Of a DNA stretch of 20,000 nt, positions 471 through 17,904 are shown piece by piece. Origin of the DNA: Planctomycetota bacterium (GTDB lineage Bacteria; Planctomycetota; Planctomycetia; JALXBF01). The stretch is from NCBI GenBank assembly GCA_026991575.1, contig JALXBF010000027.1, positions 59,759-79,758 on the forward strand, given 5' to 3'. Below the pieces are notes generated by a model. The model made no database searches, was not told the DNA's origin, and worked only from the letters and a program-made list of their open reading frames with translations. A program made the position numbers and the translations under genes. The first letter of the stretch is position 1; the number at the start of each line of letters is the position of its first letter.

Positions 471-589
471 GGGGCGCAGACTGGTGGCGCGGGGCGAGGA
501 TGGAGGTGAGTTTAAGGGGTGTCGGTAATGCTTGATGCGTGTTGGTGGTGCTAGATAGAGGACGAGTTGCATGCGTCACGCAGCAGGTT

Positions 590-1471: not shown

Positions 1472-1500
1472 TTGACATGGCAGCAGGAGGCGTCTATGCT
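1472..1500 (+). promoter_or_regulatory. Sigma70-type promoter TTGACA-N17-TATGCT for the three-gene operon
   Basis: Perfect -35 TTGACA (1472-1477), 17-nt spacer, -10 TATGCT (1495-1500), about 40 nt upstream of ATG 1540. Confidence 0.65.
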
Positions 1501-1539: not shown

Positions 1540-2943
1540 ATGCGGTCAAGCTGGGATAGGGTAGCAGTCGTCGGTCTTCTTGGCACGTTCTTGACCGCGT
1601 TCTGTACTGCTGCGCGAGGCAGTGGCGCGCGCGAGACCGCAGATGCAATTTTGGAGCGCTACGGGCCCGATGCAGCAATCACGTACTTGTATGCGGTCTT
1701 GCGTGAGAATCCTGCTAACCTGACGCCGCTGCGGCACCTCGTCGATATAGCGTGCAGTACAGCTGACGTCGCTACCAGGCGGCGCGCCGATGCGATTGTT
1801 CGGGAAATAGCTCGTCGGGTAGCGGTGGAGGACGTGGAGGAGTGTTACCGGCTGCTGGAGCGCCTGTGGCGCGATGGGGCGGAGGGACAGCGCTCAGACG
1901 AGACGCCCGTCCCAGTCGAAGAGTTGCTCCGGGCCGTCCGGCAATTGACACGCCCTGGCGACGCGGATAACCCCGACGCTCCCCCCTGGTCAGACATCGA
2001 GGCAGTTCAGTTCCGGCTATCTCAAGTTCGCATCGTCCTTTCGGGAGATATCTCCGATCAGGAACTGCGGTCGCGCTTGGCTGCAGCGGAGCGAACGCTG
2101 GAGCGCGCCCTGGCAGCGGCGACTGGGCTGACAGAGGCACGGCGCGTCCTCGCGGCGATGCGGGAGGCGGTGGGTACCGGGAAGGCCACAAGGACGTGGT
2201 TAGTCCAGAAAGACATTGAACTAACCCTTGCTCTCAAGCCCCTCCTGGATGCCGGTGATGATAGCTGTCCCGGGGCCGTCCGTTTGGCAATGGAACTTAT
2301 GAGAAACTCCGAACAGCTCCTGGAACAGGCCCAACGTCGAGATGAGTCCGAACAGCTGGCACGGCTCACCGACAAAGTGGCGCGCCTACTGGAAGCCCTA
2401 CCACCGGTTGACTCAGAGCCACGCTGCGCCTGCCCTGTGGCGCGTTGGTGGCAGGGGTCGGTCAGGCCCATCAACCGAGGTAGAATCTGCTTCCCCGGCA
2501 TTCCCAATCCCCCTGGGCCTGCTACTCGACAACTCTGGTCCGTGATGCGGGTCCGCAACTTAGTGCGTCGCAAGTTGACGGGATCTCTGCAGAGCCCGGA
2601 GACACTCGCCGAAGCGTCCAGGTTGTTGAGACAGCTCGATGATCGGATCGAGCTCTTGCGACGGTGGCGCCGCGAGCGATACCGCCTGTGGGCCCTGCAC
2701 GCGCTGGGAAAAGCCCTTCAGAGATGGGCGGCGGACAGAAACTGGACCAACACCGACGCTGAAGCCCTGTGGAAGCACTACTACCTGGACAGGGTCATCG
2801 TACCTGTTGCTGGAGAACACTTTTCCGAGACGTTCTATTGGCTACGTGATCGCTGGATACTGGACGAAGTGGACGCGAACACGAGCGCGAGAATTCGGCT
2901 CATGTTCGCGATCCGACCTCCCGTGACACTTGAGCACTTTTGA
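1540..2943 (+). CDS. Hypothetical exported or membrane-anchored helical protein (signal peptide, TPR-like segment, coiled coil, conserved C-terminal DRNWT domain); paralog of the next gene
   Basis: Part of ORF 1159..2943, whose upstream part is antisense to the IS remnant. Start placed at ATG 1540 (MRSSWDRVAVVGLLGTFLTAFCTAARG, signal-like) downstream of the promoter; ATG 1501 is an alternative. TPR-like AAITYLYAVLRENPAN. C-terminus aligns by eye with the next protein. Confidence 0.75.
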   Translation: MRSSWDRVAVVGLLGTFLTAFCTAARGSGARETADAILERYGPDAAITYLYAVLRENPANLTPLRHLVDIACSTADVATRRRADAIVREIARRVAVEDVEECYRLLERLWRDGAEGQRSDETPVPVEELLRAVRQLTRPGDADNPDAPPWSDIEAVQFRLSQVRIVLSGDISDQELRSRLAAAERTLERALAAATGLTEARRVLAAMREAVGTGKATRTWLVQKDIELTLALKPLLDAGDDSCPGAVRLAMELMRNSEQLLEQAQRRDESEQLARLTDKVARLLEALPPVDSEPRCACPVARWWQGSVRPINRGRICFPGIPNPPGPATRQLWSVMRVRNLVRRKLTGSLQSPETLAEASRLLRQLDDRIELLRRWRRERYRLWALHALGKALQRWAADRNWTNTDAEALWKHYYLDRVIVPVAGEHFSETFYWLRDRWILDEVDANTSARIRLMFAIRPPVTLEHF

Positions 2944-2953
2944 GGGGCTCACG

Positions 2954-4531
2954 ATGTACGGGACACGCGCACGGTCTGCGGCGTTAGCAACGCTTGTCGT
3001 CGGGATAGTCGCGATCGCGAGCGCGTACTGGCTGGGCGGAGAGACGTCCGAGCACGACCAAGAATCGGCCGCAACGGGCGCCAACGGTTCTGCCAGCGCG
3101 CCAACACAGGCGGCACAAGCGAAGCAACCTAGGGTAGAGAGCAGCAGGAAGTCTGCGAGATCGCAACCCGATGCCACAACAGCCACGGCATCCGCACGGA
3201 AGCGCCAACAAGGCAGCACTGCCCAGCACCGAGAAACTGCCGATCGTGGGCACGACATGGCTGGGCCCACTTCGGAACACATCGATGCAGCCCTGCACCA
3301 TGCCCGCCGGGCCGCCGAAGCAAAGAACTGGGAACTCGCACTGCTTTATGCCGCGAACGCTCTAACAAGAGACCCGAACCACAGTGAGACTTACTCGGTA
3401 ATCCGGGAGGTGGCGGAGCAGTCAGGGGACAGCGCGGTTGTGACTCGGTGCATTGGCCTTCTGGCCAGCGCGGCAAACGTGGCTCACCCGGACCGGGTCC
3501 GGCCCCTGCTCGATGAAATCGCCCGCCTCCAAGAGTTGGCCAGCTCGGTTACTCAGCAAGTCGATGCGAACCGCTTCAAGCCCGAGCAACTGGTTCAGCT
3601 GTTGAACGAGATTGACCGAGGTGTGCGTAGCGCTCCCCAACAACCCGAACGGATTAGGGAGTGGCGAGACCAGCTCACGGAACTCCTTGCCCTCGCACAG
3701 GCGGCCGGTGAGGTCGAAGAAGAACCAATCGAGCGCGGCACAAAACAGCTCGAAGAGCTAGCAGTTCTGGAGGGAATCGCCGCTGCTATTCAATCCGCTG
3801 ACATGCTCATCCGGCAACTCAAAGCACACGTACAGCGTGGCACCCCAGAGCGGGCAGTCGTCTCCCGGTACGCTTTCTTGATCAGCACGCAGCTGGATAC
3901 CGCCCTGGTCAGCACGCACCTCCCCGAGACCTGGCGCAAGGCTGTGGAGCAGAGGCACAAAGACCTCAACGATCTCCTTCACCGTGCAGAATCTATCTGG
4001 TCGGCCCAGTACTTGCAACGGATGCGCGAGGCGTTGAAGCCAGCTATGGAGCAGGCACGCCAGGCCTTGCGAGCGCCCGTCGTCGGTCCGGTTCGCAAGA
4101 GAGGACGCCTCACCCTGGCTCTGGACCGCCTTCAAGCTGAGACAACGCGTGTTCAAATTGCTATTCTCCCGCATATCAAAGACCCGAACGCGTCGCTGGA
4201 AGCAACCAAGTTGATGCGCGAAGCCGCGCAGCTTGCACGGCAGCTTGAGCTGGCGCGTCTCGATCGCTATGTCTCCTGGGCCTGCTCTGTCCTGGAGCGC
4301 GCGTTGACGCGCTACGCAGAGGATCGGAACTGGACCGATGACGATGCGAAGCAGCTGGCCACCCACTACGGCTTGCGCGACATCAATCCCTCGTACTTGC
4401 CACCTGAGGCAGCTCGCGCGCTCAGCTGGCTACTGGACAACGCGATCTATCAGGAGCTGTCCGTGGCGGATGCTGCTAAGTTTCGTATGTATTTTGCCAG
4501 TAGTCGCCCGGTTCCGCTGGAGGCTTTCTAA
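2954..4531 (+). CDS. Hypothetical membrane-anchored TPR/coiled-coil protein with conserved C-terminal DRNWT domain
   Basis: ATG 2954 preceded by GAGGGG. N-terminal hydrophobic helix (ALATLVVGIVAIASAYWLGG), low-complexity A/S/T/Q linker, TPR-like AKNWELALLYAANALTRDPNH, long helical region. Confidence 0.85.
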   Translation: MYGTRARSAALATLVVGIVAIASAYWLGGETSEHDQESAATGANGSASAPTQAAQAKQPRVESSRKSARSQPDATTATASARKRQQGSTAQHRETADRGHDMAGPTSEHIDAALHHARRAAEAKNWELALLYAANALTRDPNHSETYSVIREVAEQSGDSAVVTRCIGLLASAANVAHPDRVRPLLDEIARLQELASSVTQQVDANRFKPEQLVQLLNEIDRGVRSAPQQPERIREWRDQLTELLALAQAAGEVEEEPIERGTKQLEELAVLEGIAAAIQSADMLIRQLKAHVQRGTPERAVVSRYAFLISTQLDTALVSTHLPETWRKAVEQRHKDLNDLLHRAESIWSAQYLQRMREALKPAMEQARQALRAPVVGPVRKRGRLTLALDRLQAETTRVQIAILPHIKDPNASLEATKLMREAAQLARQLELARLDRYVSWACSVLERALTRYAEDRNWTDDDAKQLATHYGLRDINPSYLPPEAARALSWLLDNAIYQELSVADAAKFRMYFASSRPVPLEAF

Positions 4532-6282
4532 TGAAGGCTCCACTCAGCATTTTCCTGCGACTAAGCCTAGGACTGGCCACTGCGTGGTGCCCACTTCTGG
4601 CGCAAGCCCAGCAGTCCGAGGATGAACGCGAGGCGTACGAGGCCCGCCAACTACCGATTGCCGCCGCTGCAGCCGTTGCCCTCGACCGCTCCGAGCTCGT
4701 CATCCTACACCGCGGTCTCAGCGGCAATGCACTAAAGGGGGAAATCGGCGAGGCGGTCGCCACCATGCCGGCGGTCCGTCGCAGGCTGGTTGGTGGGAAC
4801 TCGTTCCTGCAGATCACAAAACTCGGCCCCGGAAGTGCAAATCAGGCGGGACTCGACGCCCTCCTGCTGCAACAGGACCCCAGCGGCAGACCGGTCGGTG
4901 CAACGGTCTTGGAGGCCAAATTTGGTCGCGGCCGCCTACGGCCGGGCCAGCTCACCGATGCCTGGGTGCGCCCAAGGGCCTCTGCGCTTGCGGATGACCT
5001 TGCCGATGCAGCTCGCGCACTAAAAGCCGGGGCAGTTCGTCGCCGCCCAATCCCGATGGGAGCTACACGTACGGAGATCCTGCTGAACTACAAAGGGAAA
5101 AACATTCGCTTGGTACAACCGAAAGGGAGCAAGGATTGGTTCATCGCCGGCGCCCGTGACGTTCCCGTCGAGGAAGTGGCTGAAATCCTAACGCGCAACG
5201 CCCGGTACCTTCGCGACACATCGGTCAGCTTTCGCAAGATCCTGGTGGAGGTATTCATGAGCGGAGAGGACCGGATCAGTCTTCACCTGAAGGAAGTCTT
5301 CGATTGGGGACCAGGGGGGATGCGAACGGTTTCGCTAGGCAGGATAGCGCTGCAGCCAAGTGCTGTTGGAGCCCGCATCCGTGGCCGCATCGCCGAACTT
5401 CTGCAGCACCGCTACGGGTTGCCGATCAAGGAGGCCCGCGTCTATGCCGACAGCTTACTGAGGAGTGTTGGCCTGAAAGAGCTGTTGTCGTCTCGATGGT
5501 CATGGCGGCTAGCTGCGCGAACACTCTCGTTTGCCGTCCTGCCGGTGGTCATGGACGTCGGCGTACCGCTGTACGAGGCAGTCGCCGGCCACATCGATTG
5601 GACGGTCTTCGCGGCATATGCCGCAACAGCAACGGCTACCGCCGCTGTGGCACTTGCTGGTTCTGTCTTGACACAGCGTCTTATTTTGGAAACGCAGGTT
5701 GGAAGACGCATGGTTGAACACGTTGCAGCAAGAATCGGCCAGCAATCGGCGATGTGGCTGAGCAAATTTGCCGTGGGTGGCGTGCTGGCTGTCGTGGCCT
5801 ACAGCTACATTGGTGCCTTGCTGGGCATCCACACCATTGAAGAGGCACACCTCTTGGCGGCCACTAGCACCGCGGGAATCCTAGTCGGCAGCCTGGCGGC
5901 AACGCTATTGTACAACCTCGCGCTCTCGTATGGCGTGGCCAGCACCGGGACGGCAATCGCGGCTCTGTCGGGCGCAGCCGCGCACAGCGCAGCTCTGGCG
6001 TGGCTTGGAGGGGGTGCCGTGGCCGCAGGGGGGTTTGGCGTCTTTGGCGGCGCGCTTATCCTGACGGGAGTGGGAGCGTTAGCGGCTCTCGCTACGCAAT
6101 TCGCGGTGCACTTCGCTTGGAACACCTACGTCCGCACGTGGGACGCCCAGCGTTGGGCAGCCTTTGTTAAGAGTCTGTCAGAGGACGGTAACCGCGGAAT
6201 GGCCGTGCTTCGGATGCTTTCGGAACGAGCCGGGACGCGCGTCGAAAGGACAGCGCCTACTCCTCCGGTCAGCCGACAATAG
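4531..6282 (+). CDS. Signal-peptide protein with PD-(D/E)xK nuclease-like domain and C-terminal multi-TM glycine-zipper (pore-former-like) region
   Basis: Coupled to the upstream gene by a TAATG overlap. Signal-like N-terminus ending LAQA. Motifs GEIGE, GLD, EAKFG, GQLTDAWV. Several hydrophobic helices and ASTGTAIAALSGAAAHSAALAWLGGGAVAAGGFG. Confidence 0.8.
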   Translation: MKAPLSIFLRLSLGLATAWCPLLAQAQQSEDEREAYEARQLPIAAAAAVALDRSELVILHRGLSGNALKGEIGEAVATMPAVRRRLVGGNSFLQITKLGPGSANQAGLDALLLQQDPSGRPVGATVLEAKFGRGRLRPGQLTDAWVRPRASALADDLADAARALKAGAVRRRPIPMGATRTEILLNYKGKNIRLVQPKGSKDWFIAGARDVPVEEVAEILTRNARYLRDTSVSFRKILVEVFMSGEDRISLHLKEVFDWGPGGMRTVSLGRIALQPSAVGARIRGRIAELLQHRYGLPIKEARVYADSLLRSVGLKELLSSRWSWRLAARTLSFAVLPVVMDVGVPLYEAVAGHIDWTVFAAYAATATATAAVALAGSVLTQRLILETQVGRRMVEHVAARIGQQSAMWLSKFAVGGVLAVVAYSYIGALLGIHTIEEAHLLAATSTAGILVGSLAATLLYNLALSYGVASTGTAIAALSGAAAHSAALAWLGGGAVAAGGFGVFGGALILTGVGALAALATQFAVHFAWNTYVRTWDAQRWAAFVKSLSEDGNRGMAVLRMLSERAGTRVERTAPTPPVSRQ

Positions 6283-6815: not shown

Positions 6816-9224
6816 TTACCGCCTGCCTTTTCCGCTCTTGCGGCCCTTGTTCTCCCTCGGTCCTTTGCTCTTCTTCGGGCTCTGCGGCGGCAGATACGGA
6901 AGGCCGCTACCCTGTTCGAGACTCGGCAGCGAAAGCCCATGGCGCGGCGTTTTCCCCGCCACGCGCTCGTTCTCGACAAACCACCTGAACGACTCCCCTT
7001 TCCGATTCGGCGGCGTGGCCTTGCCATCAGCATCACCCAGCCTCGGATAGTGGATCGGCGCGTCGTCAAAACCACGGCACGCCTGCAAGAACGCCCTGAT
7101 GAACGAGACGCCCTCCCATGACCCATTACCGTACACGCGGCCAACGGCGTCCTGGAATGCCCTGACCAGTCGTTGACAGACCGTCGCGAAATCGTCCCGG
7201 CCTGCCAGATCGTCAGCCAGAGTACGATACCGCTCGGCCCAGGCCTCACCATCGGCCAGCACACTCCCTTCCGGCACGATCTCCAACCGAACACTCCCAA
7301 AGCCCAGCGGTTTGGCACCACCGAAACGAAGGTAATGTCCTTCAGGCAACGACAGCAGCCAGAGCAGAGCACCGGCTTCCACCGCACTCAAGTTCCAGAA
7401 GTCGATGTCGAACTCGAACTGAGCCCCCGGCTTAATCCATCCCAGGATCGAACGGTTCTGGTTCGTCCGCTCGTCGTCGCCCGACGGCATCCGGTACTCC
7501 TGGTAGCGACCCCCGCGCCGTGCCTGCGTGCGGTCTTCGGTCGGGTTTTCCCAATACCCGGCCGGCAAACCGCCGTGGTGAGGATAGACCTTCCGTCCCC
7601 GCAGATACCTGCCCTCCTCATACAAGATCTCCTCCTTCGGCAGCCCGTCGTCCAGCGGCGTGCCGTTCGCGTCCCTGGCCAGGTAGAACCGGGTCTGCTG
7701 TGGCTTCGGTTGTCCCAGGATCGCTAACGGAACTCCGGGCCGCTTGAATGTCTCCACCGGGGCCTCCGTCCGGCACTCCACGTGGCTGATACGAAGCTGC
7801 CCCCGGTAGCTACCTGATCCTTTCTGATGCACCCAACCGAAGACCCGGTCCGCGGGCGAGAGCTCGTCCAGTGATCCGGCCGGTCGCAAGCTGGCATCCA
7901 GACAGCTTTCCGGTGGCTCAGGGAACAGCTTGCGCGAAATGGTTACCGGGTACAGCCCATTGATGGTCTGCCCGTCGTGTTCGACGTAGCACAGCGTGCC
8001 CGGCGTCAGCCTACGTTCTTCCTTGCGATAAATGTGCCGCGACCACGCCGTCTGTCCGGGTGCCGGGCCGAGGTAGTCCCAGGGGTTGTGTCCCTTGCGC
8101 TTCCGGTCTTCGAGATCGTCCACGTGGATCTCCTGATAGTTCGCGATCAGGTCTTCCCAGAGCCGTCGGGCATTGTCGTCAATCGGCAGCACTTCTCCGC
8201 CGTTGTCCAGGTAGAACACGCGTTCATAGGCCTTCGTGTTGATGTTCGGCCCGTTCACGAGGACCCAGCCTTTTTTCCAGCCATCACCCGGCTTATCTTC
8301 ACCTTCCCTGCGACGTTCGATGGCCGTAACCCGATCGCCCGCGCCCGTCCTTATCCAGACCTCGTCACCATGCTCTGGGATGGAACGATCGGGATAGCGC
8401 AGGACGTTTGCGCTTCGCCCCTTGTTCCTCGGGTCTTGCGTCGGACTCTTGTCTGCCTCGTAGAACGGCAACCGGGCCGCTTTCAATATCCGGAGCTGCA
8501 AGCCTCCCTCGGGTGTGCTCTCAACAATTGCCGGTTCGGTCGTTACCTTCGCCGGCGCCCGGTACGCCAGTCGCCGATCGTGGCCGAAGAACACCCCGAA
8601 CCGTGAGTTTGTCACCGCCTCGAACGCAGCGCGAAGCATGCCCTTGATCGACGTCGGAGCAATGTACGGCCGGCCGGTATGGTCCAGCCGCACGGCGAAC
8701 GTCTTGTGGCCATTCGTATCTTCTTCGGCGCGTGCTGCGTCGACCACCAACAGTGGCGTGACGGCCGTCATGCGCACGCGGATTCGCCCGGTGTACCGCG
8801 AGGGCTTCAGCCGGTGATGTCCTTCGGGCCTACGGTCGCCCAACTCGGCATCGCGTCTGTTCCGTGGCGGAGCCGGGACGAAGTTGTAGGGGTTGTGGAA
8901 CGTGGCCGTGGCAGGTCTTTGACTCACCGCACTCACACTCGTCTGTACAGCCGACCGACTCGAGGATTCGCTCGCCCTTCCGCTCCGGATCTGACCCTGG
9001 ACACTCACGATCCTGGCCTGCTGACCGTGACGCTCGAAAAGGACCGCGACGCCGTCAAGGGCTCGCTTGCGAGCCGCCTTGTCGGGGTTGGCCATGACCT
9101 GGCGGACGGCGTCGGGCTGAGCATCGTCGGGAACGGACAGGTGCTCTTCATTGCCACGCGCGTTCGTGACCTTGACAAACAGCTTGCCTTTCTTGCTGAC
9201 AAAAAGCTTGCCTTCACTCGCCAT
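6816..9224 (-). CDS. cas7: Type III-D Cas7 protein with large insertion (TIGR03986-like RAMP)
   Basis: FHNPYNFVP, AVTPLLV, PYIAPTSIKGMLRAAFEAVTNS, LSPADRVFGWV, LRGRKVYPHH and the G-rich loop GGAKPLGFGSV. ATG 9224 has GGAG upstream (the ORF track starts at GTG 9230). Confidence 0.93.
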   Translation of the reverse strand: MASEGKLFVSKKGKLFVKVTNARGNEEHLSVPDDAQPDAVRQVMANPDKAARKRALDGVAVLFERHGQQARIVSVQGQIRSGRASESSSRSAVQTSVSAVSQRPATATFHNPYNFVPAPPRNRRDAELGDRRPEGHHRLKPSRYTGRIRVRMTAVTPLLVVDAARAEEDTNGHKTFAVRLDHTGRPYIAPTSIKGMLRAAFEAVTNSRFGVFFGHDRRLAYRAPAKVTTEPAIVESTPEGGLQLRILKAARLPFYEADKSPTQDPRNKGRSANVLRYPDRSIPEHGDEVWIRTGAGDRVTAIERRREGEDKPGDGWKKGWVLVNGPNINTKAYERVFYLDNGGEVLPIDDNARRLWEDLIANYQEIHVDDLEDRKRKGHNPWDYLGPAPGQTAWSRHIYRKEERRLTPGTLCYVEHDGQTINGLYPVTISRKLFPEPPESCLDASLRPAGSLDELSPADRVFGWVHQKGSGSYRGQLRISHVECRTEAPVETFKRPGVPLAILGQPKPQQTRFYLARDANGTPLDDGLPKEEILYEEGRYLRGRKVYPHHGGLPAGYWENPTEDRTQARRGGRYQEYRMPSGDDERTNQNRSILGWIKPGAQFEFDIDFWNLSAVEAGALLWLLSLPEGHYLRFGGAKPLGFGSVRLEIVPEGSVLADGEAWAERYRTLADDLAGRDDFATVCQRLVRAFQDAVGRVYGNGSWEGVSFIRAFLQACRGFDDAPIHYPRLGDADGKATPPNRKGESFRWFVENERVAGKTPRHGLSLPSLEQGSGLPYLPPQSPKKSKGPRENKGRKSGKGRR

Positions 9225-9813: not shown

Positions 9814-11483
9814 CTTCGTTCGCCCTCGTCCAAGTCGTCTGAAGAGCCCCCCAATGATGTGTGACTTCGGATCCATCCGGCCCAAGTTTGCCGCAGTTCC
9901 TCGCAGAGATCGGCAGCCAACTCCTCAAACCGCTGCCCGCTCCAGCGCACGCCGTCCAGCTTAGCGAGCTGGCCTTCCACGCCCTGAGCACGAAAGCGGA
10001 TCTCTTTGACCCGAACCTGGCCCATCCCTCGGTTCGCGGCAAAGCCCAGGGGAATCCAGCCGGTGGCCAGGTCGCGCAGGACGCAGAGCAGTAGCGCGAG
10101 CGCCGGCATGCGGTGTCGGCGCTGAATGCGGCGCCAGTCCACGGTCATGCGGATTGGTTCCCATTGGACGCCGTGGGGCTCCAACACGGTGTACAGCATC
10201 CGCTCGGCGGCTCCTCCGGTCCAGCGATCCACCGCCACGTGGTAAGCCTGCTGCCACCGAGCCGCCGAACCTCCGAGTTGGTTCAACGCGCTGAGCACGC
10301 CAGCGTCGTCCGCAGCAGCGACCACGTCCGCCCACCTGGCTGGATCGAACCGGTCCCGCTCAGCCAGGCAGTCTTCCACCAGCAACGCACCGCGGCCTGG
10401 TTCGGGCAGGTCGGATCGAGTACCCGATGGTTTCTCTGCGCCGCCGTTGCCCCGTCGCGCGCGTGGGCTGTCCTTGCGGTGCATCAAGGCCGTGCCGAAG
10501 AGTTCGTCGACCAGCGGAACTTCAAGTTGGCCCAGGAAGCGTTTACGCGGGTCCTCTTCGTCCACGACGTCCTGGCCGAGGATGGTACGCACGATGAGTT
10601 CAGCTCGGCTTCTCAACGCGCCCTTGATCGAACTGCCCGGAAGCACAGGTGTGATCCTGCGGCCACCGTCCACGCCGGTGGTCATCGGTAGCATGTCTGA
10701 CGCCATGCCGTCATACCCGGCCTTGACCATGACCGGTCCGACGGGTTCCCAGTCGATTTCCATCGCCAGGACGGGGCGTCCCTTCGGTTTCCACGGTGGA
10801 ATCGCCTCCAGCGAGAGCTTACGCCCGCCCTGGGCCAGTCCGTCCAGAAACGCCTCCGCGTCATCGAAGCGCAGCTCACGCAACTGCACGTTGACCAGCT
10901 TGATCTTGCCGAGGCCGCGCGTCGTCGCCGCTCCGACGCGAAGCCCACCACTGGTGAGAGCATCCAGCATTGTGCGGAGCTGACCGAGCAATCTATCGTG
11001 CTCCTCTTGGTTGGCCGTCTCCAACCGGACCGAGAAACGGAACCTGGTGCCTCTCGGAAGGACCGCGCAATCGAACTTGATCCCTTCCGCTGCGGTTCCC
11101 CATTGCCGGTCGATCCCGACGCCATCGCGGATCTCATGTTCGACCTGTCCGATAACGACAGCGTCGTCCACAATCAGCTTGGATGCATGACCGGTGTCCT
11201 CTTCGTCGTCAGACGCATATCCGAACAGATCTTCGACCTCCGCCAGATCGCGTTCGTCCGAACCCAGGACGCTGTCGCCCAGGATCGCGGCGCGGAACCA
11301 GGCGCGGAGCACGCCGGCCAGGCTGGTACCTGGGATGTAGTAGTTGCCGGCACCGTTGACGGCCAGCGGCAAGTCGGTATCGACATCGCCCCCGACTCCA
11401 CCAACGTGCAGTGCGGTTTCGGCGACCAATTCGCCACGGGCGGTCACCACCGAATACAAGCTGCGTTCTTGCGTGGTACTCAC
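9810..11483 (-). CDS. csm3: Cas7-Cas7 fusion (two Csm3-like RAMP domains)
   Basis: Domain 1: ALHVGG...DTDLP...YIPGTSLAGVLR...VGAATTRGLG. Domain 2: PVMVK...SDMLP...LPGSSIKGALRS...VAVDRWTGG...LGFAANRGMG. Start moved to GTG 11483 (GGAG RBS) because the upstream extension overlaps the previous gene. Confidence 0.92.
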   Translation of the reverse strand: MSTTQERSLYSVVTARGELVAETALHVGGVGGDVDTDLPLAVNGAGNYYIPGTSLAGVLRAWFRAAILGDSVLGSDERDLAEVEDLFGYASDDEEDTGHASKLIVDDAVVIGQVEHEIRDGVGIDRQWGTAAEGIKFDCAVLPRGTRFRFSVRLETANQEEHDRLLGQLRTMLDALTSGGLRVGAATTRGLGKIKLVNVQLRELRFDDAEAFLDGLAQGGRKLSLEAIPPWKPKGRPVLAMEIDWEPVGPVMVKAGYDGMASDMLPMTTGVDGGRRITPVLPGSSIKGALRSRAELIVRTILGQDVVDEEDPRKRFLGQLEVPLVDELFGTALMHRKDSPRARRGNGGAEKPSGTRSDLPEPGRGALLVEDCLAERDRFDPARWADVVAAADDAGVLSALNQLGGSAARWQQAYHVAVDRWTGGAAERMLYTVLEPHGVQWEPIRMTVDWRRIQRRHRMPALALLLCVLRDLATGWIPLGFAANRGMGQVRVKEIRFRAQGVEGQLAKLDGVRWSGQRFEELAADLCEELRQTWAGWIRSHTSLGGSSDDLDEGERR

Positions 11484-11505
11484 GGCAAACTCCGTCGCAA
11501 GCCTG

Positions 11506-13905
11506 CTAGTGCTCCCTTTCCGACGACTCGCTCTGCCGCTTGTGCGCGCGTGCACAAGCGTCCACCAGCGCACGGACGGCAAACGCCCACAGTTCCCGCT
11601 GCACTGCAGCCTTGCCATCCTCGGTCAGAATTTCCCAGCTGCCTTCCAGTTGAAGGGCCCTCCAGACTGCGTTGTCGTCCTGTACCAGTTGCAAGCACTT
11701 GCTCCTCGCATCCTCAGGCCATGCCTCCTTGCGAAGCTTGCTTTTCTCCAGGCGGCTGAACCAATCCGAGACGATGCGGCGGTCTTGCTGGCTATGCAGT
11801 CGGGCGAGGACTTGGCGGAAGGCCATGATTTGGGTGATCGTTGGCTCGCTCTGGCGGCCGTTGAGCTTCCAGCCAAGCAGCCTCCGACGTTCCTGCGACT
11901 TGTCCGCAATCTCCAGGCAGCGGCGTCGGATCAGCCGTTTAGCCACCTCCTGTTCGAGCAGTCTGGCCAGCTGGAAACCGGGCTCACCGTCTCTCAGTAG
12001 TCGCACCCCGGCGCCGGTCGCTGGGTCTGCTTCTGACGTGCTCATCTGGCCGATGGTCCAGTTCTGGGGCGGCTGAGTGAGGGCCGGGTGGTTGAAGACG
12101 ACCTCGCCGAACCCTTCGGCAGTTCGTTCGCCGATGCCGGTAGCCTGTAGCTCGGCCAGCCGGCTTGGATCGATCGGCCGATCCGCCTTGAACACAAAAC
12201 AGGACCCGGCGCGCAGGGCGATCAGCGAAGGGCGGGGCATCTGCCAGCCGGAATGCCAGGTCTCATGCCGGCGGGTGCGAGCGAACGCGCTGCGGGCATC
12301 CCTGAGCTGCAAGCCCACGCCAAGCCTTGCTTCCAGTGCGCGGCGAAGCCGTTCGACAAGCGGCGTGTATCGCAGGCCGTCGTCGCGCAGGAGCGTATCG
12401 GAGGCAAGCCAAACGAAGAGGTCGTTGTCGGAGGAAGCTGCTGGTGGCTGGGTCAGCTCACAGGGCTCGCCAGAGTCGATCTCCACCATGCCGTAGTCAT
12501 CCTTCTTGGACCGACCGACGCGAGCCGTGCCGTTAAGCCGACGCCACCACCGTGGGTCGCGCTGGCCGAGCAGGGAGTAAACGGCTTCATTTACTATCAG
12601 CACGCTACGCAGGTAGACCGGCCGGCCGTCGTCAACCGCCGCGATCGCCTCATACGAATAGACCCCTCCGCCTGCTTCGGGCGTGGGCCGCTGCCGCACG
12701 TCATCCACGCTGCCGTGGGTCCGCACGGTTAGCGGTACGCGCGCAGGGCCAATGAACACACCACCATCCCAGGCCAGATAAACTCCTTGGGCCGGCTTGG
12801 TCTGCTTGCTGGTATCGCTTTCTTGTTTCTTATCCCCCTCGCTTTTGGCATCGTCTGCCGCGATCAGGAATTGATTGACCACGCACTGTCGTGGTTTCGC
12901 GAATCCTTCGCTGTCCTTGCGCACCTGCACCGCCTCAGGTGCCGGCAGTGTGCGAACGCGTCCTTTCTCGATCGTCGCGTTCAGGACGCGCACCAGACCG
13001 CTGGCGACATACGGACGGATCGATACGCCGATCGCGTCTGCGGCAGCTGTGACGAAGGGCAGTAGGCAGTAACCGGGAACGTAATCCAATGTCTCGACCA
13101 CGTTACCCACCGTGCGGTAGCTGATGGCCAGCGGCGCAAGCGGTTTGATCCGCAGCGGGATTGCCCACCACCGTTGGGCGGGGGCAGCGGCAGGGACTGC
13201 TTCGCCGGCGGATTTCGGTTCGGGCGTGTGAACTGGGATCGAGATGCCTTCCCTCCTGGCCTTCCTTAGCACCTCGATGGCTTGCCGCACGTCGGGTACG
13301 CGGTCGCCGCGGAGTCGGATCTGACAGCGGCCGTGTCCTCGGCGACGCTTGCCCCCAAGCCGGTCGACCAGCTGAGCTCCCGCCACCAGAAGGGCCAGGG
13401 CAACATCCTCGACGTCGGGCGGTACGTCCAGTTCGACCTCGGCCTCGAGCTCGGCACCCACCCTCGCCAACTCTTCGAACCGCAGGTAATCCTCGACCGC
13501 CTGTCCCGTCCGGTCGCTGATCTTGACACCGGGCTTAACGAACGTCAGTGCGGCTGCGGCAGCACGGTGCCGGGCCAATAGCGCACGTAGGGGAGCCGCA
13601 AGCCGAGCGGGACGCACAGACAGTGCGGCAGGTTGCGGAGGGTGATCTGTGGGACCGCGGTGCAGCGATGGCTGGCTGCCAAACAGGAACTCCACCAATT
13701 GGTTCCAGGTCCCGCGCGGCCCACTGTCCAGAGCGAATGCGACCCGTTCGCATGCATCGCGCCAGATGCCCTGCAATGTCTTGGCCGGAACGAACGGCAG
13801 GCCGTCGGAGTCACGGGCAACCAGGGCATCGATGTGCCCGGGCTGACCGGCGCCGGAGCCAACGTGCCAGTCGGATTGTGTCTTGATCGTCGCCGTTAGC
13901 TTCAT
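11506..13905 (-). CDS. csx10: Cas7-Cas5-Cas11 fusion (Csx10-like RAMP with C-terminal small-subunit-like domain)
   Basis: Cas7: SDWHVGSG...IDALVARDSDGLPFVPAKTLQG...LGGKRRRGHG. Cas5/Csx10: LDYVPG, VGRSKKDDYG, GIGERTAEGFG. Helical C-terminal ~140 aa interpreted as Cas11. Start is ATG 13905 or GTG 13911. Confidence 0.9.
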   Translation of the reverse strand: MKLTATIKTQSDWHVGSGAGQPGHIDALVARDSDGLPFVPAKTLQGIWRDACERVAFALDSGPRGTWNQLVEFLFGSQPSLHRGPTDHPPQPAALSVRPARLAAPLRALLARHRAAAAALTFVKPGVKISDRTGQAVEDYLRFEELARVGAELEAEVELDVPPDVEDVALALLVAGAQLVDRLGGKRRRGHGRCQIRLRGDRVPDVRQAIEVLRKARREGISIPVHTPEPKSAGEAVPAAAPAQRWWAIPLRIKPLAPLAISYRTVGNVVETLDYVPGYCLLPFVTAAADAIGVSIRPYVASGLVRVLNATIEKGRVRTLPAPEAVQVRKDSEGFAKPRQCVVNQFLIAADDAKSEGDKKQESDTSKQTKPAQGVYLAWDGGVFIGPARVPLTVRTHGSVDDVRQRPTPEAGGGVYSYEAIAAVDDGRPVYLRSVLIVNEAVYSLLGQRDPRWWRRLNGTARVGRSKKDDYGMVEIDSGEPCELTQPPAASSDNDLFVWLASDTLLRDDGLRYTPLVERLRRALEARLGVGLQLRDARSAFARTRRHETWHSGWQMPRPSLIALRAGSCFVFKADRPIDPSRLAELQATGIGERTAEGFGEVVFNHPALTQPPQNWTIGQMSTSEADPATGAGVRLLRDGEPGFQLARLLEQEVAKRLIRRRCLEIADKSQERRRLLGWKLNGRQSEPTITQIMAFRQVLARLHSQQDRRIVSDWFSRLEKSKLRKEAWPEDARSKCLQLVQDDNAVWRALQLEGSWEILTEDGKAAVQRELWAFAVRALVDACARAHKRQSESSEREH

Positions 13906-13948
13906 GCTCACCCCTGTCGGTGTCGTTGCTTGCCGCTCGCACGCACGG

Positions 13949-15607
13949 TCACCGGCTCTCTGCCAGGCCGGCGACTTCGATCACATCTAGCAGATCAGTC
14001 TGGTAGCGGGGCCCCTTGGACTCGCTCTGCTGCCGCGCTGTCCCGGAGCCGTTGCGCTCCCAGAACAAGTTCCCGTTGGTCAGGATCTCGTCGAGGGCCT
14101 TGTACCGGTTGCGGATCAGAGCGAGTTGTGCCTCGGCCACGGCTCGCCCTTCGAACAGGGCGTCGCGGAGCACGTGCAGCTGACTGGATGGAATCACCCG
14201 TCGTCCCTCTTCGCGCCTCAGTACCACGTTACGCTTGCGGATGAGCTCGTCCCACAGGGGACCTTGCGTCGAAGTCCCCTCCCCGCGGCTCGGTTCGACG
14301 ACGTACGGGCGAGCGGTCAGGTAAGACTCCCCGTTGTCGACCCACCACCCGGCGCGCATGCGGTCCAGATCGGTAGCGCTGGCGTCGTAGACGATCTGGA
14401 AATCAATTGCTGCGTCAGGCTTACATTTCTTCGCCTCGCGCAGCAGCGACTCGGCCAGGTCGTATGCTGCATGGAACGGGAAATGGGGCTTGATCACCGC
14501 AACGCCGGCAGACGCAGTCAGCGGGCGCTCGCTGATGCTTTGCACGATCGAGGCGATGTCCTGATTCGCTCGTGCCTGTTCGACGAAGCATCTCAGAAAC
14601 TCAGCGGTGAACTCCAGCGCGTAGCGACCGGCAACGATGACGGTCAAGTCGTCGCCGCCGAGAACCAACGGCACAATCGGATACCGACCGTGGCGATCCA
14701 GCGGGACAGCCTGCTTCACCGCCCGGCAGAACGCCGTCTCGGTGCACTCGTCCAGGGCAATGGAAAACCGCCGGACTCTGTCGATGTACTCCCGATTCCA
14801 GCTCCGGCCGCCTGTCGGCTGTTTGCTGATCGCCTTATCAAACCTCAGAAAGACTTGTCCCAGACCGTTGCCATCGGCATGCACGACGGCGATCCATTGG
14901 GCAGGTTCGAGGGCATCCAGCGAGCCCGCGACTCCCGCGGCCAGACCGTGACGCTCAAACAGCTGAACGGCGCGTTGCTCCCACCAGTCACGGGCTTCGA
15001 TCTTGGCGAGAGTCGAGTGAGCGGCCGGGCCTTCTTCACCCCGAGGAACTCCGTCCCGCCGACGGGTGACTGTCCGCATCGCCGGCAGCCCGCTGGTCCG
15101 GCACTCAGCAACAACAGGCAGTCGCTGGAAGCGGCTCTCCGGGCCGGGAAGCTCCGCGCGCAACCGCGTGTGCTCGACATGCACCTGTCCAATCTTCTCG
15201 TGCAGGTTATCCGCGTCGAGATCCATCGGGACGATCGCCCCGTGAACGGCCAGCCCTGGAGCCTGCTCCAGCGCTCGCGTGGTCACCTCCGCCACGATCC
15301 TTTCGGCCGTGGCTCGGTCACGCACCAGTAACAATGCCTTGCCGGACGCAGAGACGACGACCTCCACCGAGCCCTTGCCATCCTCGATCGGTGGGTTCGA
15401 ACTGGGATCACGCAACCGGTTCCGCAACTCAGCGGCGTCCGTGTCCCACAGTGCCGGTCCCCCTGCTTCTTCGACCGCCTCGAGCACGTACTGGGTACCG
15501 GTACGGTAGATCAGCTCCGACGCCCCAACGTTTTCCCGGAGCTTGTTTGTGGCGAAGATAAACGCCTGGTTTGAGCTGGTCTCGATCAGGACAAGGTGTA
15601 CGTCCAT
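13949..15607 (-). CDS. cas10: Compact Cas10 (552 aa) lacking the HD nuclease domain, with intact Palm GGDD motif
   Basis: Begins directly at LIETSSNQAFIFATNKLRENVGASEL. Contains VVHADGNGLG, LGGDDL, SAGVAVIKPHFPFHAAYDLAESLL. GGGGAG RBS upstream. Confidence 0.95.
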   Translation of the reverse strand: MDVHLVLIETSSNQAFIFATNKLRENVGASELIYRTGTQYVLEAVEEAGGPALWDTDAAELRNRLRDPSSNPPIEDGKGSVEVVVSASGKALLLVRDRATAERIVAEVTTRALEQAPGLAVHGAIVPMDLDADNLHEKIGQVHVEHTRLRAELPGPESRFQRLPVVAECRTSGLPAMRTVTRRRDGVPRGEEGPAAHSTLAKIEARDWWEQRAVQLFERHGLAAGVAGSLDALEPAQWIAVVHADGNGLGQVFLRFDKAISKQPTGGRSWNREYIDRVRRFSIALDECTETAFCRAVKQAVPLDRHGRYPIVPLVLGGDDLTVIVAGRYALEFTAEFLRCFVEQARANQDIASIVQSISERPLTASAGVAVIKPHFPFHAAYDLAESLLREAKKCKPDAAIDFQIVYDASATDLDRMRAGWWVDNGESYLTARPYVVEPSRGEGTSTQGPLWDELIRKRNVVLRREEGRRVIPSSQLHVLRDALFEGRAVAEAQLALIRNRYKALDEILTNGNLFWERNGSGTARQQSESKGPRYQTDLLDVIEVAGLAESR

Positions 15608-15935
15608 CCGGGTCTCCCCACTGGCGGAACCAATCGCATTCCACTACATCAACGCGCAGCCCGTTCCGTTTCTGACACACCTCAGTCGACAGTTCGGACG
15701 CGGCCCGGTCACCGATCTGTGACCCCCGGGCGACGCTCACCTGCACGGCTTCGGGCCAGGCACATCAAGGGGTGCTGTTCCTGTGGAACAGGCCGTGCTG
15801 GCCGATCCGGATTGGGCCCGGTCGAGCAGATCGGACGCTCTAAGCCAGGGCCGAACGAAATGGGTGCGGCCACCGGCGCGGGCCCGACGTGAGGGCTCGC
15901 CCGCCGGTGCGGTGCCGGGCTGCGCCTCGCAAGCA

Positions 15936-16913
15936 CTACGAACGCACGGCCTCCTCGCTCGCGGTCTGGCTGCGGCGCCGCCGTACGGTGGCCTTCGCAT
16001 GTGGATCGGGCTTTTGTTCAGGCGCGTTGCGACTGTCTGCTACGAGCTCAGCCATCCGGCGTCTGTGGTCGAGCCACAGCTTGACCAGGCCGTAGCACAG
16101 GAGGCAGGCACCGAGGACGGGCACGGCGATGTGCCAGGGAATGCTGCGGGTCGTTTCCGTCAGCACCGTGCCGGTTGTAGTTCCGACCGTTTCGATTCCT
16201 TTCTCCACGGGCCGCAAGATCAGCTCCTTGGCTGTGTTAATGTAAAGTTCCGGGTTCCTCAAGAACGCCACAAGCGTGGCCGTGACGGCCAGGGCTCCTT
16301 TGTGTCGCCAGATGAAGTCCATCGCCCGGTCACCGTACTTGGCCAGGATCTCCAGAAGCTGCTTCGCCTGCTGCTGCGTCTTCGGGATCTTGTCCCAGTG
16401 CCCCGTTCGATGCATGATCGCCCAGCGGCGAGCTTGTTTCGGAGACAGCGACGCCAGCACCCGCACGCCGTCGTCACCGTAGCGGGTCACCAGCGGAGTC
16501 ACCACGGCTCGGCCGTGTTTCAGGTAGAGGTCTGCAAGCTCGTCCCCGTGATGGGCGATGAGCTTGAGGGCACGGGTGTCCCGGGCGATACCCATTGCGC
16601 GCTTTCCATAGCGACCCAGTATCCGGGCCCGGGTCGGAGCGTGCGGGCCACCTTTTTCGAGCACTTCCAACGCCTCGATCCCGCCTTTCCGGATCGCGTC
16701 AGCGGCGTCCTCACCGTGGCGTGTCAGCACCCGTTGGATTCGGTGGGCCAGATCGTCCACCGTCTTACGTCCCACCTTGCTGGTAACTCTGATTAGCTGT
16801 TCAGCAAGCTCGCGTGCCAGTGTTCCTACGCCCGCAGACGCGGTCCCCGGCACGCCGGTTAGCAACACGGCAGCGACTGCAAACGCCGACAGGACAGCTG
16901 GTACCCTGATCAC
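15936..16913 (-). CDS. Hypothetical signal-peptide membrane protein with short helical [RKH]-[HY]-G repeats and C-terminal TM helix
   Basis: GTG start with GGAGG RBS, 1 nt after the upstream stop. Signal peptide ending TASA. Repeats RHGED, RYGKR, HHGDE, KHGRA, RYGDD, KYGDR. Hydrophobic ALAVTATLVAFL and IAVPVLGACLLCYGLVKLWL. Confidence 0.8.
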   Translation of the reverse strand: MIRVPAVLSAFAVAAVLLTGVPGTASAGVGTLARELAEQLIRVTSKVGRKTVDDLAHRIQRVLTRHGEDAADAIRKGGIEALEVLEKGGPHAPTRARILGRYGKRAMGIARDTRALKLIAHHGDELADLYLKHGRAVVTPLVTRYGDDGVRVLASLSPKQARRWAIMHRTGHWDKIPKTQQQAKQLLEILAKYGDRAMDFIWRHKGALAVTATLVAFLRNPELYINTAKELILRPVEKGIETVGTTTGTVLTETTRSIPWHIAVPVLGACLLCYGLVKLWLDHRRRMAELVADSRNAPEQKPDPHAKATVRRRRSQTASEEAVRS

Positions 16914-16914
16914 G

Positions 16915-17904
16915 TCAGCGCACCTCCACTTTCATCTGCCGCAGTGCCTCGTAAACCACAGCCCGACGGACCTCCGACCGTTCTTGCGCGATCTTCTCGA
17001 GCAGCTGCACCAGTCCCGGCCGCCCGTCATGTCCGGCCAGGATGCCCTGCTCCATCTCGTTAAGCATGTCGCGCAGCTGGCGACTCAACTTACCCGCCGG
17101 ATCCCACAGCCAGTGCAGGATCCAGTCCACCGCAATCCCGATGAGTATGGACACACCGAAGGTGGCTAACGCCCCGCCGCCCGTTACAGCCACGATCCCA
17201 AACCTCGCAGCCACCCGTGCCGCAGCAACAAGAACCGCCTTCTCGATCACCTCGGTGACCAGCAGGACGACCAATTCCCGCTTTAGCGTCTCCAGCGGCA
17301 CGGCTCCGACGCGTTCCAGGGCGTCGGAATACTGCATCCGCAGATCATGCTTGATCTGCTGCAGGATCCCTTCCGCCTCAGCAAGCGAAAGCTCCCTTCC
17401 TTCCACCTCGACGTCCGCCGCAAGTTGCACGAGGAGTTCCGCCTCCGCGTCTACCTGCGCCTGGGCGAACCGTTGCACTGCGCCCGTCAGTACCGCTTCC
17501 AGTTCGGCGCTGGACAGCACGCGCTGTTCGAACATCCGGGCGATGTCCTCCTTGCCGTACCACAGGTAGCGGAACATCGTCCACAGCCCCACCGCGTCGT
17601 CAGCGAACGCCGGGACATTGTCCCGGGCTCGGGCGAAAAGTCGGCGAACGTCTTGCTCGGCTGCTCGGATTGCTGCCCGGACCGTCCGGTCACATTCGGC
17701 CAGTCGCTGTTCGATGGTCTCGCGCCGGATGGTCACCGTAGGTGCCGGCGCTTCAGCAGGCTCGGCCACGTCGGGTGGTGCGGCGGGCGTCTGCGCGGTG
17801 CTACGGCTCGTTTCATGCTGGAAGAACCACACTGCCCAGCCCGCGACGAGCAACGCACCTAGTGCCACAGCCAGGGCTTGTGGGGACAACAATCTTCGCC
17901 TCAT
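16915..17904 (-). CDS. Hypothetical membrane protein: N-terminal TM anchor, helical body, Gly/Ala-rich hydrophobic hairpin
   Basis: ATG 17904 (MRRRLLSPQALAVALGALLVAGWAVWFF) with GGGGGTGA RBS. Hairpin FGIVAVTGGGALATFGVSILIGIAVDWILHWLW is flanked by amphipathic helices. Confidence 0.8.
   Translation of the reverse strand: MRRRLLSPQALAVALGALLVAGWAVWFFQHETSRSTAQTPAAPPDVAEPAEAPAPTVTIRRETIEQRLAECDRTVRAAIRAAEQDVRRLFARARDNVPAFADDAVGLWTMFRYLWYGKEDIARMFEQRVLSSAELEAVLTGAVQRFAQAQVDAEAELLVQLAADVEVEGRELSLAEAEGILQQIKHDLRMQYSDALERVGAVPLETLKRELVVLLVTEVIEKAVLVAAARVAARFGIVAVTGGGALATFGVSILIGIAVDWILHWLWDPAGKLSRQLRDMLNEMEQGILAGHDGRPGLVQLLEKIAQERSEVRRAVVYEALRQMKVEVR

Follow-up and report, generated by a model that had tools for sequence, protein, structure and literature searches.

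The 20,000-nucleotide stretch of DNA analysed here, referred to as the window, carries five minus-strand cas genes that form a type III-Dv operon with a complete effector set in the order cas10, cas7-cas5-cas11, cas7-2x, csx19 and cas7-insertion. The product of cas10 (13949..15607) matches the PADLOC Cas10 profile (E=8e-108) and the Pfam family Cas10-Cmr2_palm2. The gene is followed by the cas7-cas5(csx10)-cas11 fusion (11506..13911), with Cas7_IIId matched at residues 3-215 and Cas5_IIId/Csx10 at residues 251-723, and by the double Cas7 fusion cas7-2x (9810..11618), which comprises two RAMP stretches and matches PADLOC Cas7_IIId (E=8.4e-131). The operon ends with csx19 (9214..9885; TIGR03984, E=7.3e-32) and cas7-insertion (6816..9230; TIGR03986, E=1.4e-95; PADLOC Csm3/Cas7_IIId). 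Residues 317-320 of Cas10 read GGDD, encoded at 14648-14659, and the dipeptide HD is absent from the whole protein, as is an HD domain. The assignment of the operon to type III-Dv is based on the profile matches, the gene order, and the presence of GGDD together with the absence of HD. The profile matches thus bear out the five cas genes of the original prediction, positions included.

The operon is bracketed by five further genes, here designated A to E, in the layout that had been predicted: A, B and C, on the plus strand, run convergently towards the operon's 3′-end, and D and E, on the minus strand, lie upstream of cas10. A Kyte-Doolittle scan revealed an N-terminal hydrophobic segment in all five proteins, confirming that each has a signal peptide or TM anchor. 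Gly-rich hydrophobic regions are present in two of them, C and E. Judged from hydropathy and charge alone (positive-inside rule), the bulk of each of the five proteins is predicted to be extracytoplasmic. When searched against Pfam, NCBIfam and PADLOC, A-E gave no match to CARF, SAVED or any further nucleotide-sensor domain.

Gene A (1540..2943) is paralogous to B, with which its product shares 30-31% identity over the C-terminal ~190 residues. The A protein consists of a TM anchor at the N-terminus and a helical body, and the B-family HMM, which had A itself in its training set, matches it with E=1.6e-152. The gene is over-extended by the long ORF 1159-2943, whose N-terminal 98 residues match other contigs. 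An IS-like repeated element (458..1451), present in six other copies in this genome with 76-86% identity, overlaps with a fragment of an IS66-family transposase gene (ORF 223-825 on the minus strand; NCBIfam transpos_IS66, E=1.3e-12). The promoter-like site TTGACA-17-TATGCT just upstream of A (1472..1500, plus strand) agrees with the consensus at 10/12 positions; such sites are not more numerous in the window than in shuffled controls, and this one is a consensus match only. The product of gene B (2930..4531) is anchored by an N-terminal TM segment, contains a helical region resembling TPRs and carries a conserved domain at its C-terminus. A single close homologue, P0008 (46% identity), was found, and designed TPR proteins are matched weakly (E~1e-3). 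The protein encoded by gene C (4531..6282) combines a signal-peptide-like N-terminus with an alpha/beta domain of the PD-(D/E)xK-like type, a beta-rich domain and a membrane domain made up of several Gly-rich helices (AF2 model, pLDDT 82.5). The C family comprises 182 matches at E<=1e-10, and residues E74, D109, E128, K130 and Q140 are invariant in 50/50 aligned members, which identifies C as the protein with the predicted nuclease motif; structure comparison gave no match to a nuclease. The Gly-rich module that C has in common with the PADLOC profile PDC-M09A occurs in many otherwise different proteins.

On the other side of the operon, the product of gene E (16915..18015, probable start 17904) comprises a TM helix at the N-terminus, a bundle of helices and a hydrophobic hairpin rich in Gly (AF2 model, pLDDT 77.6). 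Its partner D (15936..16913) combines a signal peptide with a body of helical repeats and a TM anchor at the C-terminus, and a search of genome contigs returned 117 relatives. A DUF1501-family gene outside both systems (18599..20000, plus strand; Pfam PF07394, E=2.8e-72) is cut by the contig end, which is also the end of the window.

The homologues of these genes recur as pairs. Five full-length C loci with upstream DNA were recovered (L139, L140, L151, L168 and L190; the first two are apparently one sequence), and in each of them the C homologue is directly preceded by a B-like ORF. None of these loci has cas neighbours, and the neighbours at L190 are housekeeping genes. A/B-C is an autonomous conserved cassette consisting of a B-like protein followed by C. 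Likewise, E immediately precedes D, with both genes on one strand, in 72/81 loci, mostly of Planctomycetota and with otherwise variable neighbours, the next real neighbour cluster being common to 11 loci. Any RAMP match occurs in 13/55 checked genomes carrying D, and RAMP genes reside on the same contig at one D locus, a type III-B locus of one MAG. Cas or CARF matches are absent from the 91 neighbouring ORFs of E-D, which are mostly housekeeping or conjugative-element genes, including genes for T4SS coupling proteins (5 loci) and for integrases (3 loci), and thus do not support the defence-island setting that had been proposed. E-D is an autonomous conserved cassette as well, spread over Planctomycetota and further phyla in differing surroundings that at times include conjugative-element genes. 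The homologue-neighbourhood check put forward with the original prediction therefore turned out negative for proximity to cas10 (1/55 D genomes with same-contig RAMPs, no cas genes at B-C loci); proximity to each other holds within the E-D and B-C pairs but not for the five genes as a set.

The window contains no CRISPR array. Arrays are located on four other contigs of this genome (G000), one of them adjoining RT and Cas1 genes. Orthologous III-Dv operons are present in two related genomes, G301 (locus L029, 44-52% identity) and G594 (L225, 42-48% identity). Both have a Card1/Can2-like CARF nuclease gene directly downstream, and in neither is any of the five flanking genes present. Homologues of A-E were detected neither by tblastn in L029, L030 and L031 nor by HMM searches in 9 Card1-like loci. 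The only Card1-like gene found in G000, encoding a CARF/PD-D/ExK nuclease, is situated on contig C162, outside the window. Its product is 42% identical to the Card1-like protein of G301 over 412 aa (E=4e-92) and contains the D...DxK stretch DIVVNCNGRVHIIDCK. Together with the G301 and G594 relatives beside the III-Dv operons, it matches CARF_Card1, Card1_endonuc and PADLOC CARF_PDDEXK (E=8.9e-14 for the C162 protein), with Card1-like Pfam scores under the curated cut-offs (22.6 bits vs 26.4; 22.4 vs 24.6). The signal-activated nuclease of the window operon is likely encoded on C162; as G000 has further type III modules on C32, C183 and C133, the pairing of this nuclease with the window operon in particular is an inference. 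The claim that the module has no recognisable effector thus stands in cis, as the window holds none, but fails genome-wide.

Taken together, we favour, with a probability of roughly 0.7, the interpretation that the window shows a III-Dv operon parted from its accessory pieces and adjoined by two unrelated autonomous cassettes that are not Cas10-dependent effectors. The III-Dv complex would bind crRNAs derived from the arrays elsewhere in the genome; upon binding of target RNA, the GGDD palm of Cas10 would synthesize cyclic oligoadenylate, which in turn would activate the Card1/Can2-like CARF and PD-D/ExK nuclease of C162. We propose this course of events because of the behaviour of the Synechocystis III-Dv complex and the position of the orthologous nuclease in the two related genomes. 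As to the cassettes, the predicted topology suggests that C is exported and anchored in the membrane by its Gly-rich helical bundle, displaying the conserved PD-(D/E)xK-type motif domain outside the cytoplasm, and that B, duplicated here as A and B, would be its membrane-anchored helical/TPR-like partner. Similarly, both proteins of the E-D cassette would face the periplasm, E as a helical bundle that includes a membrane hairpin and D as an exported protein of helical repeats that is anchored at its C-terminus. Our best guess is that both cassettes serve an envelope-level function independent of Cas10, either in membrane maintenance or in conflict with mobile elements. The alternative offered in the original prediction, an independent co-located envelope system, fits better than new Cas10-dependent ancillary effectors, but as two separate cassettes, A/B-C and E-D, rather than one five-gene system.

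We consider it unlikely, though worth weighing, that E-D, or E alone, is a facultative type III accessory module that is usually free-standing but has been repeatedly recruited beside type III effector or CARF genes, where it might add a membrane-level response, for instance when triggered indirectly by damage to membranes or nucleic acids. E-family genes have type III components as neighbours in three places: the E-D pair of the window lies 328 nt upstream of cas10 in the same orientation; on C162, a paralogue of E (E′, 49% identity) lies 364 nt downstream of the Card1-like gene; and in L084, a complete cas6-cmr1-6 operon and then two small ORFs precede E-D, which is on the same strand. These occurrences, counted after the fact, suggest an excess over random expectation. 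D was detected in only 1/151 genomes of the order of L084, so that the L084 contig was apparently gained as a unit by horizontal transfer; mis-binning is another possibility. Moreover, the modelled shape of E, a helical bundle with a hydrophobic hairpin, would be compatible with membrane insertion. However, 42/55 D genomes have no RAMP match, although RAMP genes of some could have been missed because the MAGs are incomplete, only 1/80 D loci is on a RAMP-bearing contig, E or D matches were found in 0/9 other Card1-like loci, and the orthologous III-Dv loci lack E-D. In addition, no nucleotide-binding domain was found, the cytoplasmic exposure is predicted to be tiny, and the enrichment estimate is post hoc.

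It seems more doubtful that B-C and/or E-D represent stand-alone envelope defence or toxin cassettes in a defence island, independent of Cas10 and engaged in the same biological conflict, in which case C would be an exported protein whose Gly-rich membrane domain forms pores and bears a nuclease-like domain. In line with this possibility, the Gly-rich module of C (aa 443-512) matches PDC-M09A (E=2.1e-16), as do the C homologues of L139 and L190, and PDC systems are described in the available part of 10.1101/2024.01.29.577857 as candidates found embedded in known defence systems. Further points in its favour are the invariant E...D...ExK...Q motif of the C family, the mobile-element-like or defence-like neighbours at L168 and L139 (PDDEXK_4/PDC-S26, AAA_27 with Metallophos, IstB), the surroundings of E-D in L084, which comprise a type III-B operon as well as ORFs resembling ShosA and PDC-M72A, and the IS copy adjoining A. 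Conversely, the 91 E-D neighbour ORFs gave no specific defence-system match, their PADLOC matches being generic (kinase, UvrD, T4CP and methyltransferase domains), and L190 has housekeeping surroundings. The PDC-M09A match covers only ~70/330 profile positions, viral contigs yielded neither D relatives nor full-length C relatives, and C lacks a structural match to a nuclease.

Finally, the original proposal that one or more of A-E are new ancillary effectors, dependent on the Cas10 signal and replacing the missing CARF effector, is very improbable: the five genes do flank a signalling-competent cas10 with GGDD in a window without a CARF gene, and membrane ancillary effectors such as Cam1, Csx23 and CorA are known (available parts of PMC11229360 and PMC13294483), but a Card1-like effector exists in trans here and in cis in two relatives, A-E show neither a sensor domain nor the soluble nucleotide-binding domain of the known membrane effectors, their homologues are mostly in RAMP-negative genomes or away from cas genes, with those of D and E rarely beside type III genes and those of B-C without cas neighbours in the recovered loci, and the III-Dv orthologues do without A-E.

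A-E resemble Cam1, Csx23 and CorA as membrane proteins beside a signalling-competent cas10, C and E with Gly-rich hydrophobic helices. However, as far as the available parts of PMC11229360 and PMC13294483 describe them, the known effectors combine TM segments with a soluble nucleotide-binding domain (CARF in Cam1, a cA4-binding domain in Csx23; PMC11229360), which was undetected in A-E; most of each A-E protein is predicted to be extracytoplasmic, and the A-E families are not regularly near cas10. The candidate system PDC-M09A shares the Gly-rich membrane module with C aa 443-512, whereas the match includes neither the nuclease-like domain of C nor its beta-rich domain. The C162 protein compares with Can2/Card1, a class of cA4-activated CARF nucleases according to the available part of PMC11229360, but has an extra C-terminal region of ~140 residues, its assignment is below the Pfam cut-offs with ligand and activity putative, and its gene lies outside the window. 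The closest counterpart of the operon itself is the III-Dv system of Synechocystis sp. PCC 6803 as described in the available part of PMC11026444: its five genes and their order are identical to those in the window, its Cas10 likewise retains GGDD without a working HD domain, and its cas7-insertion likewise has ~110 extra N-terminal residues, the TIGR03986 match starting at aa 114 in the window protein. In Synechocystis, cas6, adaptation genes, the array and Csm6/Csx1 accessory genes adjoin the operon (PMC11026444), whereas the window contains none of these, and the likely effector class is Card1/Can2-like here but Csx1 there.

Profile searches indicated that the window, which comprises the final 20 kb of contig C27 of the source genome (G000, a Planctomycetota MAG of 4.96 Mb in 191 contigs), harbors the complete III-Dv gene set in one operon. 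The minus-strand genes correspond to cas10 (13949-15607), a Cas7-Csx10(Cas5) fusion extended at its C-terminus (cas7-cas5(csx10)-cas11; 11506-13911), a double Cas7 (cas7-2x; 9810-11618), csx19 (9214-9885), and a TIGR03986-type Cas7 with an insertion (cas7-insertion; 6816-9230). The GGDD cyclase motif of Cas10 is intact (aa 317-320), and the entire protein contains neither an HD dipeptide nor a Pfam match to an HD domain. No CRISPR array, array-type tandem repeat, or Rfam family was found in the window. The CRISPR part of the window is a further example of the known III-Dv architecture, here in a planctomycete-like MAG.

The III-Dv accessory genes are scattered across this fragmented, IS-rich assembly. 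Arrays with a repeat starting GTTTCAATCCCATCGTGG are present on four other contigs (C47, C96, C182, and C187). The C96 array (locus L001, ~9572-10091) is adjoined by separate, overlapping genes for a reverse transcriptase (616 aa) and Cas1 (380 aa) at L001:10995-13788, which likely form a module for RT-assisted adaptation used by the type III systems. C32 and C183 also carry RAMP genes, and C133 a Csx10/Csx19 pair, indicating that the genome contains several type III modules.

The operon is enclosed by five further genes. Three of them, A (1540-2943), B (2930-4531, with stops and starts overlapping those of A and C), and C (4531-6282), are encoded on the plus strand and converge on the 3′-end of the operon. 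The other two, D (15936-16913) and E (16915-17904/18015), are located on the minus strand upstream of cas10, with a gap of 328 nt between D and cas10. Hydropathy analysis revealed an N-terminal hydrophobic segment in each of the five proteins, and further such segments in the C-terminal half of C (several), near the C-terminus of D, and in E, where they form a hairpin (~aa 246-304). In line with the original prediction, the operon is thus bracketed by genes with signal or membrane anchors, three of them convergent and two co-oriented upstream.

The start of gene A is preceded by an IS66-family-like repeat (458-1451), which overlaps an ORF at 223-825 on the minus strand and has six further copies in the source genome at 76-86% identity; its core, ~727-817, matches many copies in related genomes. 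A longer ORF beginning at 1159 was rejected as the real gene A, since the reading frame of the IS-like element runs into A. A promoter-like site, a consensus match, is well placed before A (1472-1500); the promoter and terminator scan of the window yielded nothing above shuffled controls.

According to excerpts of PMC11229360 and PMC13294483, membrane effectors of type III systems combine transmembrane segments with a soluble ligand-binding domain, namely a CARF domain in Cam1, a cA4-binding domain in Csx23, and the N-terminal domain in CorA. In contrast, A to E are devoid of a detectable soluble domain for binding a second messenger: searches with Pfam, NCBIfam, and PADLOC (E≤0.01) revealed no CARF, SAVED, Csx23-type, or CorA N-terminal domain, though a divergent, unmodelled sensor could escape these profiles. 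Judging from hydropathy and flanking charges, the bulk of each protein would reside outside the cytoplasmic membrane. By their sequences, A to E appear to be poor candidates for receptors of a Cas10 signal.

To what extent these genes follow type III loci was addressed for D by a survey of one genome per species, which identified 117 relatives, of which 80 loci were retained. Most derive from Planctomycetota (Pirellulales, Planctomycetaceae, Isosphaeraceae, and Gemmataceae), and some from Verrucomicrobiota and other MAGs; no relative was found in viral contigs. ORF clustering of the 80 loci and the window placed an E-family ORF directly upstream of D and on the same strand in 72 of the 81, while the next neighbor family is common to only 11 loci, setting aside a larger cluster of antisense ORFs that overlap D. 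E-D is a widespread autonomous pair. The phylum-level search detected relatives of E in 7 of 301 genomes, and a word-index search with the E profile returned three matches, a method that badly under-reports these families. In the ESM Atlas, all clusters containing relatives of D are named ‘hypothetical protein’, Planctomycetota being the commonest source.

The surroundings of the pair were scanned with Pfam and PADLOC, using 91 ORFs chosen as the longest one found in the 3 kb to either side; ORFs >830 aa were excluded, as were six near-duplicate or previously analysed loci. No Cas or CARF protein was present among the 91 ORFs, and the PADLOC matches were to generic domains only. The flanks encode housekeeping enzymes as well as DUF6690 (4 loci) and YcjX-like proteins (2 loci). 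In addition, a T4SS coupling protein (TraG/VirD4-like) adjoins the pair in five loci (L072, L080, L085, L108, and L118), and integrases lie close to it in three (L071, L108, and L114), suggesting that some E-D copies may ride integrative conjugative elements. Genome G190 contains two identical copies of an E homologue at the ends of contigs C5 (L033) and C9 (L034), which suggests that the assembly was interrupted there by a repeated and possibly mobile region.

PDB profile searches with the E and D families returned nothing significant. The model of E (pLDDT 77.6) consists of a long helical bundle and the hydrophobic hairpin, for which neither Foldseek against pdb nor VIA wide yielded a convincing fold match. 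The best Foldseek E-value was 0.05, with TM≤0.17 for ClyA, SmhB, AhlB, and MakA; VIA scored MxB and bacterial dynamin stalks at Z ~10 and a designed bundle at Z 11.5, below the Z ~13 that is given as a level common for helical bundles. The likeness of the predicted structure to dynamin-family stalks or ClyA-type toxins does not exceed what helical bundles commonly show.

The plus-strand genes form a second cassette that is unrelated to E-D. Word-index searches, which again under-report relative to exhaustive search, retrieved six matches for C and one homologue of B, as if both were near-orphans, whereas the exhaustive search with C found 2039 relatives at E≤0.001, of which 182 passed E≤1e-10. 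Among the best 150, most span nearly the whole length (540-600 aa). C was found in 2 of 301 genomes in the phylum-level search, counting the source genome and one weak match. All ten relatives that were looked up are unnamed or ‘hypothetical’, and the ESM Atlas clusters of C are all called ‘hypothetical protein’, with Verrucomicrobiota as the commonest source; one YeeR_C cluster, scored at 0.79 in the Atlas searches with C and D, represents a lead only.

Over 100 full-length proteins belong to the C family, in which an apparently exported domain carries an invariant motif of nuclease type. Across 50 aligned members, E74, G107, D109, E128, K130, L136, and Q140 do not vary. The AF2 model (pLDDT 82.5) places the motif in a helix (65-77), two strands (110-115 and 121-131), and the start of another helix (143-165), an arrangement that would correspond to the order expected for a PD-(D/E)xK core. 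Searches for this fold with Pfam, PDB profiles, and the whole model (Foldseek pdb, VIA wide) gave no significant match, and PDB profile searches with the C and B families were likewise without a significant hit. The N-terminal segment passes the hydropathy threshold in 22 of the 50 members, and many of the others have shorter, signal-peptide-like starts by eye. The C-terminal third is predicted to form a bundle of membrane helices that includes a highly conserved Gly-rich motif, which recurs in many otherwise different proteins. This motif accounts for the partial match of C to the PADLOC profile PDC-M09A, as only positions 143-212 of its 330 align, with aa 443-512 of C. The four matches to C in viral contigs are likewise all to the Gly-rich module.

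In each of the five full-length metagenomic loci with upstream sequence (L139, L140, L151, L168, and L190), the C homologue is immediately preceded by a B-like ORF. L139 and L140 seem to be one and the same sequence, and L187 contains a partial B-C pair. In the source genome, the B gene is duplicated, giving rise to A and B. The neighbors of the pair comprise an SMC-like ATPase, a phosphoesterase, and IstB in L139, PcfJ, PDDEXK_4, and DUF2779 in L168, and housekeeping genes in L190; no cas gene lies beside B-C in these three loci.

Taken together, the flanking genes are two uncharacterised, conserved envelope cassettes, whose families are overwhelmingly found outside type III loci. Matches to the RAMP family PF03787 were detected in 13 of the 55 D-carrying genomes checked (2/5 and 11/50) and were absent from the other 42, and in a single case RAMP genes are located on the same contig as D. 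Neither for D nor for the B-C loci do we thus see the proximity of homologues to cas10 that would mark a CRISPR-linked membrane/nuclease system, and the original prediction of such a system replacing a missing effector is not borne out, since the families are mostly found elsewhere and a likely effector is encoded in trans (see below). Its fallback, independent envelope systems that merely lie nearby, is closer to the data, with a role in defence or as toxins remaining putative. Both cassettes are conserved, unannotated gene pairs that would merit functional study by themselves.

One observation deserves separate consideration. Region L006:584-3598 on contig C162 of the source genome contains a paralogue of E (E′), which is 49% identical to E, lacks a D partner, and is located 364 nt downstream of a gene for a Card1-like protein, a predicted CARF and PD-(D/E)xK nuclease; a DDE transposase fragment lies beside E′ at the start of the contig. 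Moreover, L084, a 15-kb contig binned as Venatoribacter, carries cas6-cmr1-cas10-cmr3-cmr4-cmr5-cmr6, two small ORFs, and finally E and D; the genes share the same strand and are separated by short gaps. Together with the window, the E family therefore touches type III components three times, and random placement would predict far fewer. We retained as the main rival that the adjacency of E-D to type III systems reflects a functional association. However, the counting was post hoc, one of the three cases is the very window from which the question arose, and the nine other Card1-like loci contain no relative of A to E (HMM searches, E≤0.01); a functional association is regarded as unlikely. Also unlikely is the bolder reading that E-D is an envelope module repeatedly recruited beside type III components (III-Dv cas10, Card1-like, and III-B cmr genes), where it would add a membrane-level arm of immunity without a canonical nucleotide sensor, and that the C family would represent a novel kind of exported nuclease of the PD-(D/E)xK type on a Gly-rich membrane domain, acting with B against incoming nucleic acid at the envelope. 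We found no evidence that ties either of the two envelope cassettes to Cas10 signalling; the recurrent adjacency of the E family to type III components is the one thread deserving a proper census.

The two small ORFs between cmr6 and E-D (L084:7908-8943) match PADLOC PDC-M72A (157 aa) and ShosA (155 aa) and could be a small defence cluster. Among 151 genomes of the order of L084, no other one contained D. A third, distant member of the E family in the source genome (C115:32696-33877, minus strand; E-family HMM, E=7.5e-22) has no obvious N-terminal transmembrane helix; two small ORFs come after it.

The original prediction further stated that the III-D module has no recognisable effector. This holds locally but not for the genome, since related loci carry a Card1-like gene, which the source genome encodes in trans on C162. 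The C162 protein (499 aa), the only one of its kind in this genome, matches both Pfam models a few bits below the curated cut-offs (CARF_Card1, 22.4 bits versus 24.6; Card1_endonuc, 22.6 versus 26.4), and PADLOC assigns CARF_PDDEXK (E=8.9e-14) and Csx1, a CARF and nuclease profile (E=6.6e-13). A DNA search of 41 related genomes revealed collinear matches to the cas operon in G301, a member of the same family, whose five Cas proteins share 44-52% identity with their window counterparts. There, the cas7-insertion genes are directly followed by a Card1-like gene, the product of which shares 42% identity with the C162 protein across 412 residues (E=4e-92), a divergence equal to that of the Cas proteins. 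The class-level search detected relatives of the C162 protein in 9 of 251 genomes, among them G594, where the gene immediately follows a full III-Dv operon. Thus, the orthologues in G301 and G594 adjoin type III modules, whereas the copy of the source genome is unlinked. Given the fragmented assembly, an effector missing beside cas10 can simply be an effector on another contig.

In G301, contig C132 (L029:3789-8755) together with contigs C306 and C67 contains two tandem cas7-insertion genes, which are 44% and 52% identical to that of the window, and three Card1-like paralogues. Tblastn detected no relative of A to E in the orthologous and related loci L029-L031, and an ORF downstream of the Card1-like gene (L029:1093-1770) is not E-like and looks spurious.

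The gene order of the window operon equals that of the Synechocystis III-Dv operon, as far as the latter is given in excerpts of PMC11026444, and the same excerpts describe that the Synechocystis complex makes cOA and thereby activates Csx1. By analogy, the Cas10 of the window would activate the nuclease encoded on C162, and the related loci suggest that the clade of this operon pairs with a Card1/Can2-like nuclease instead of Csx1.
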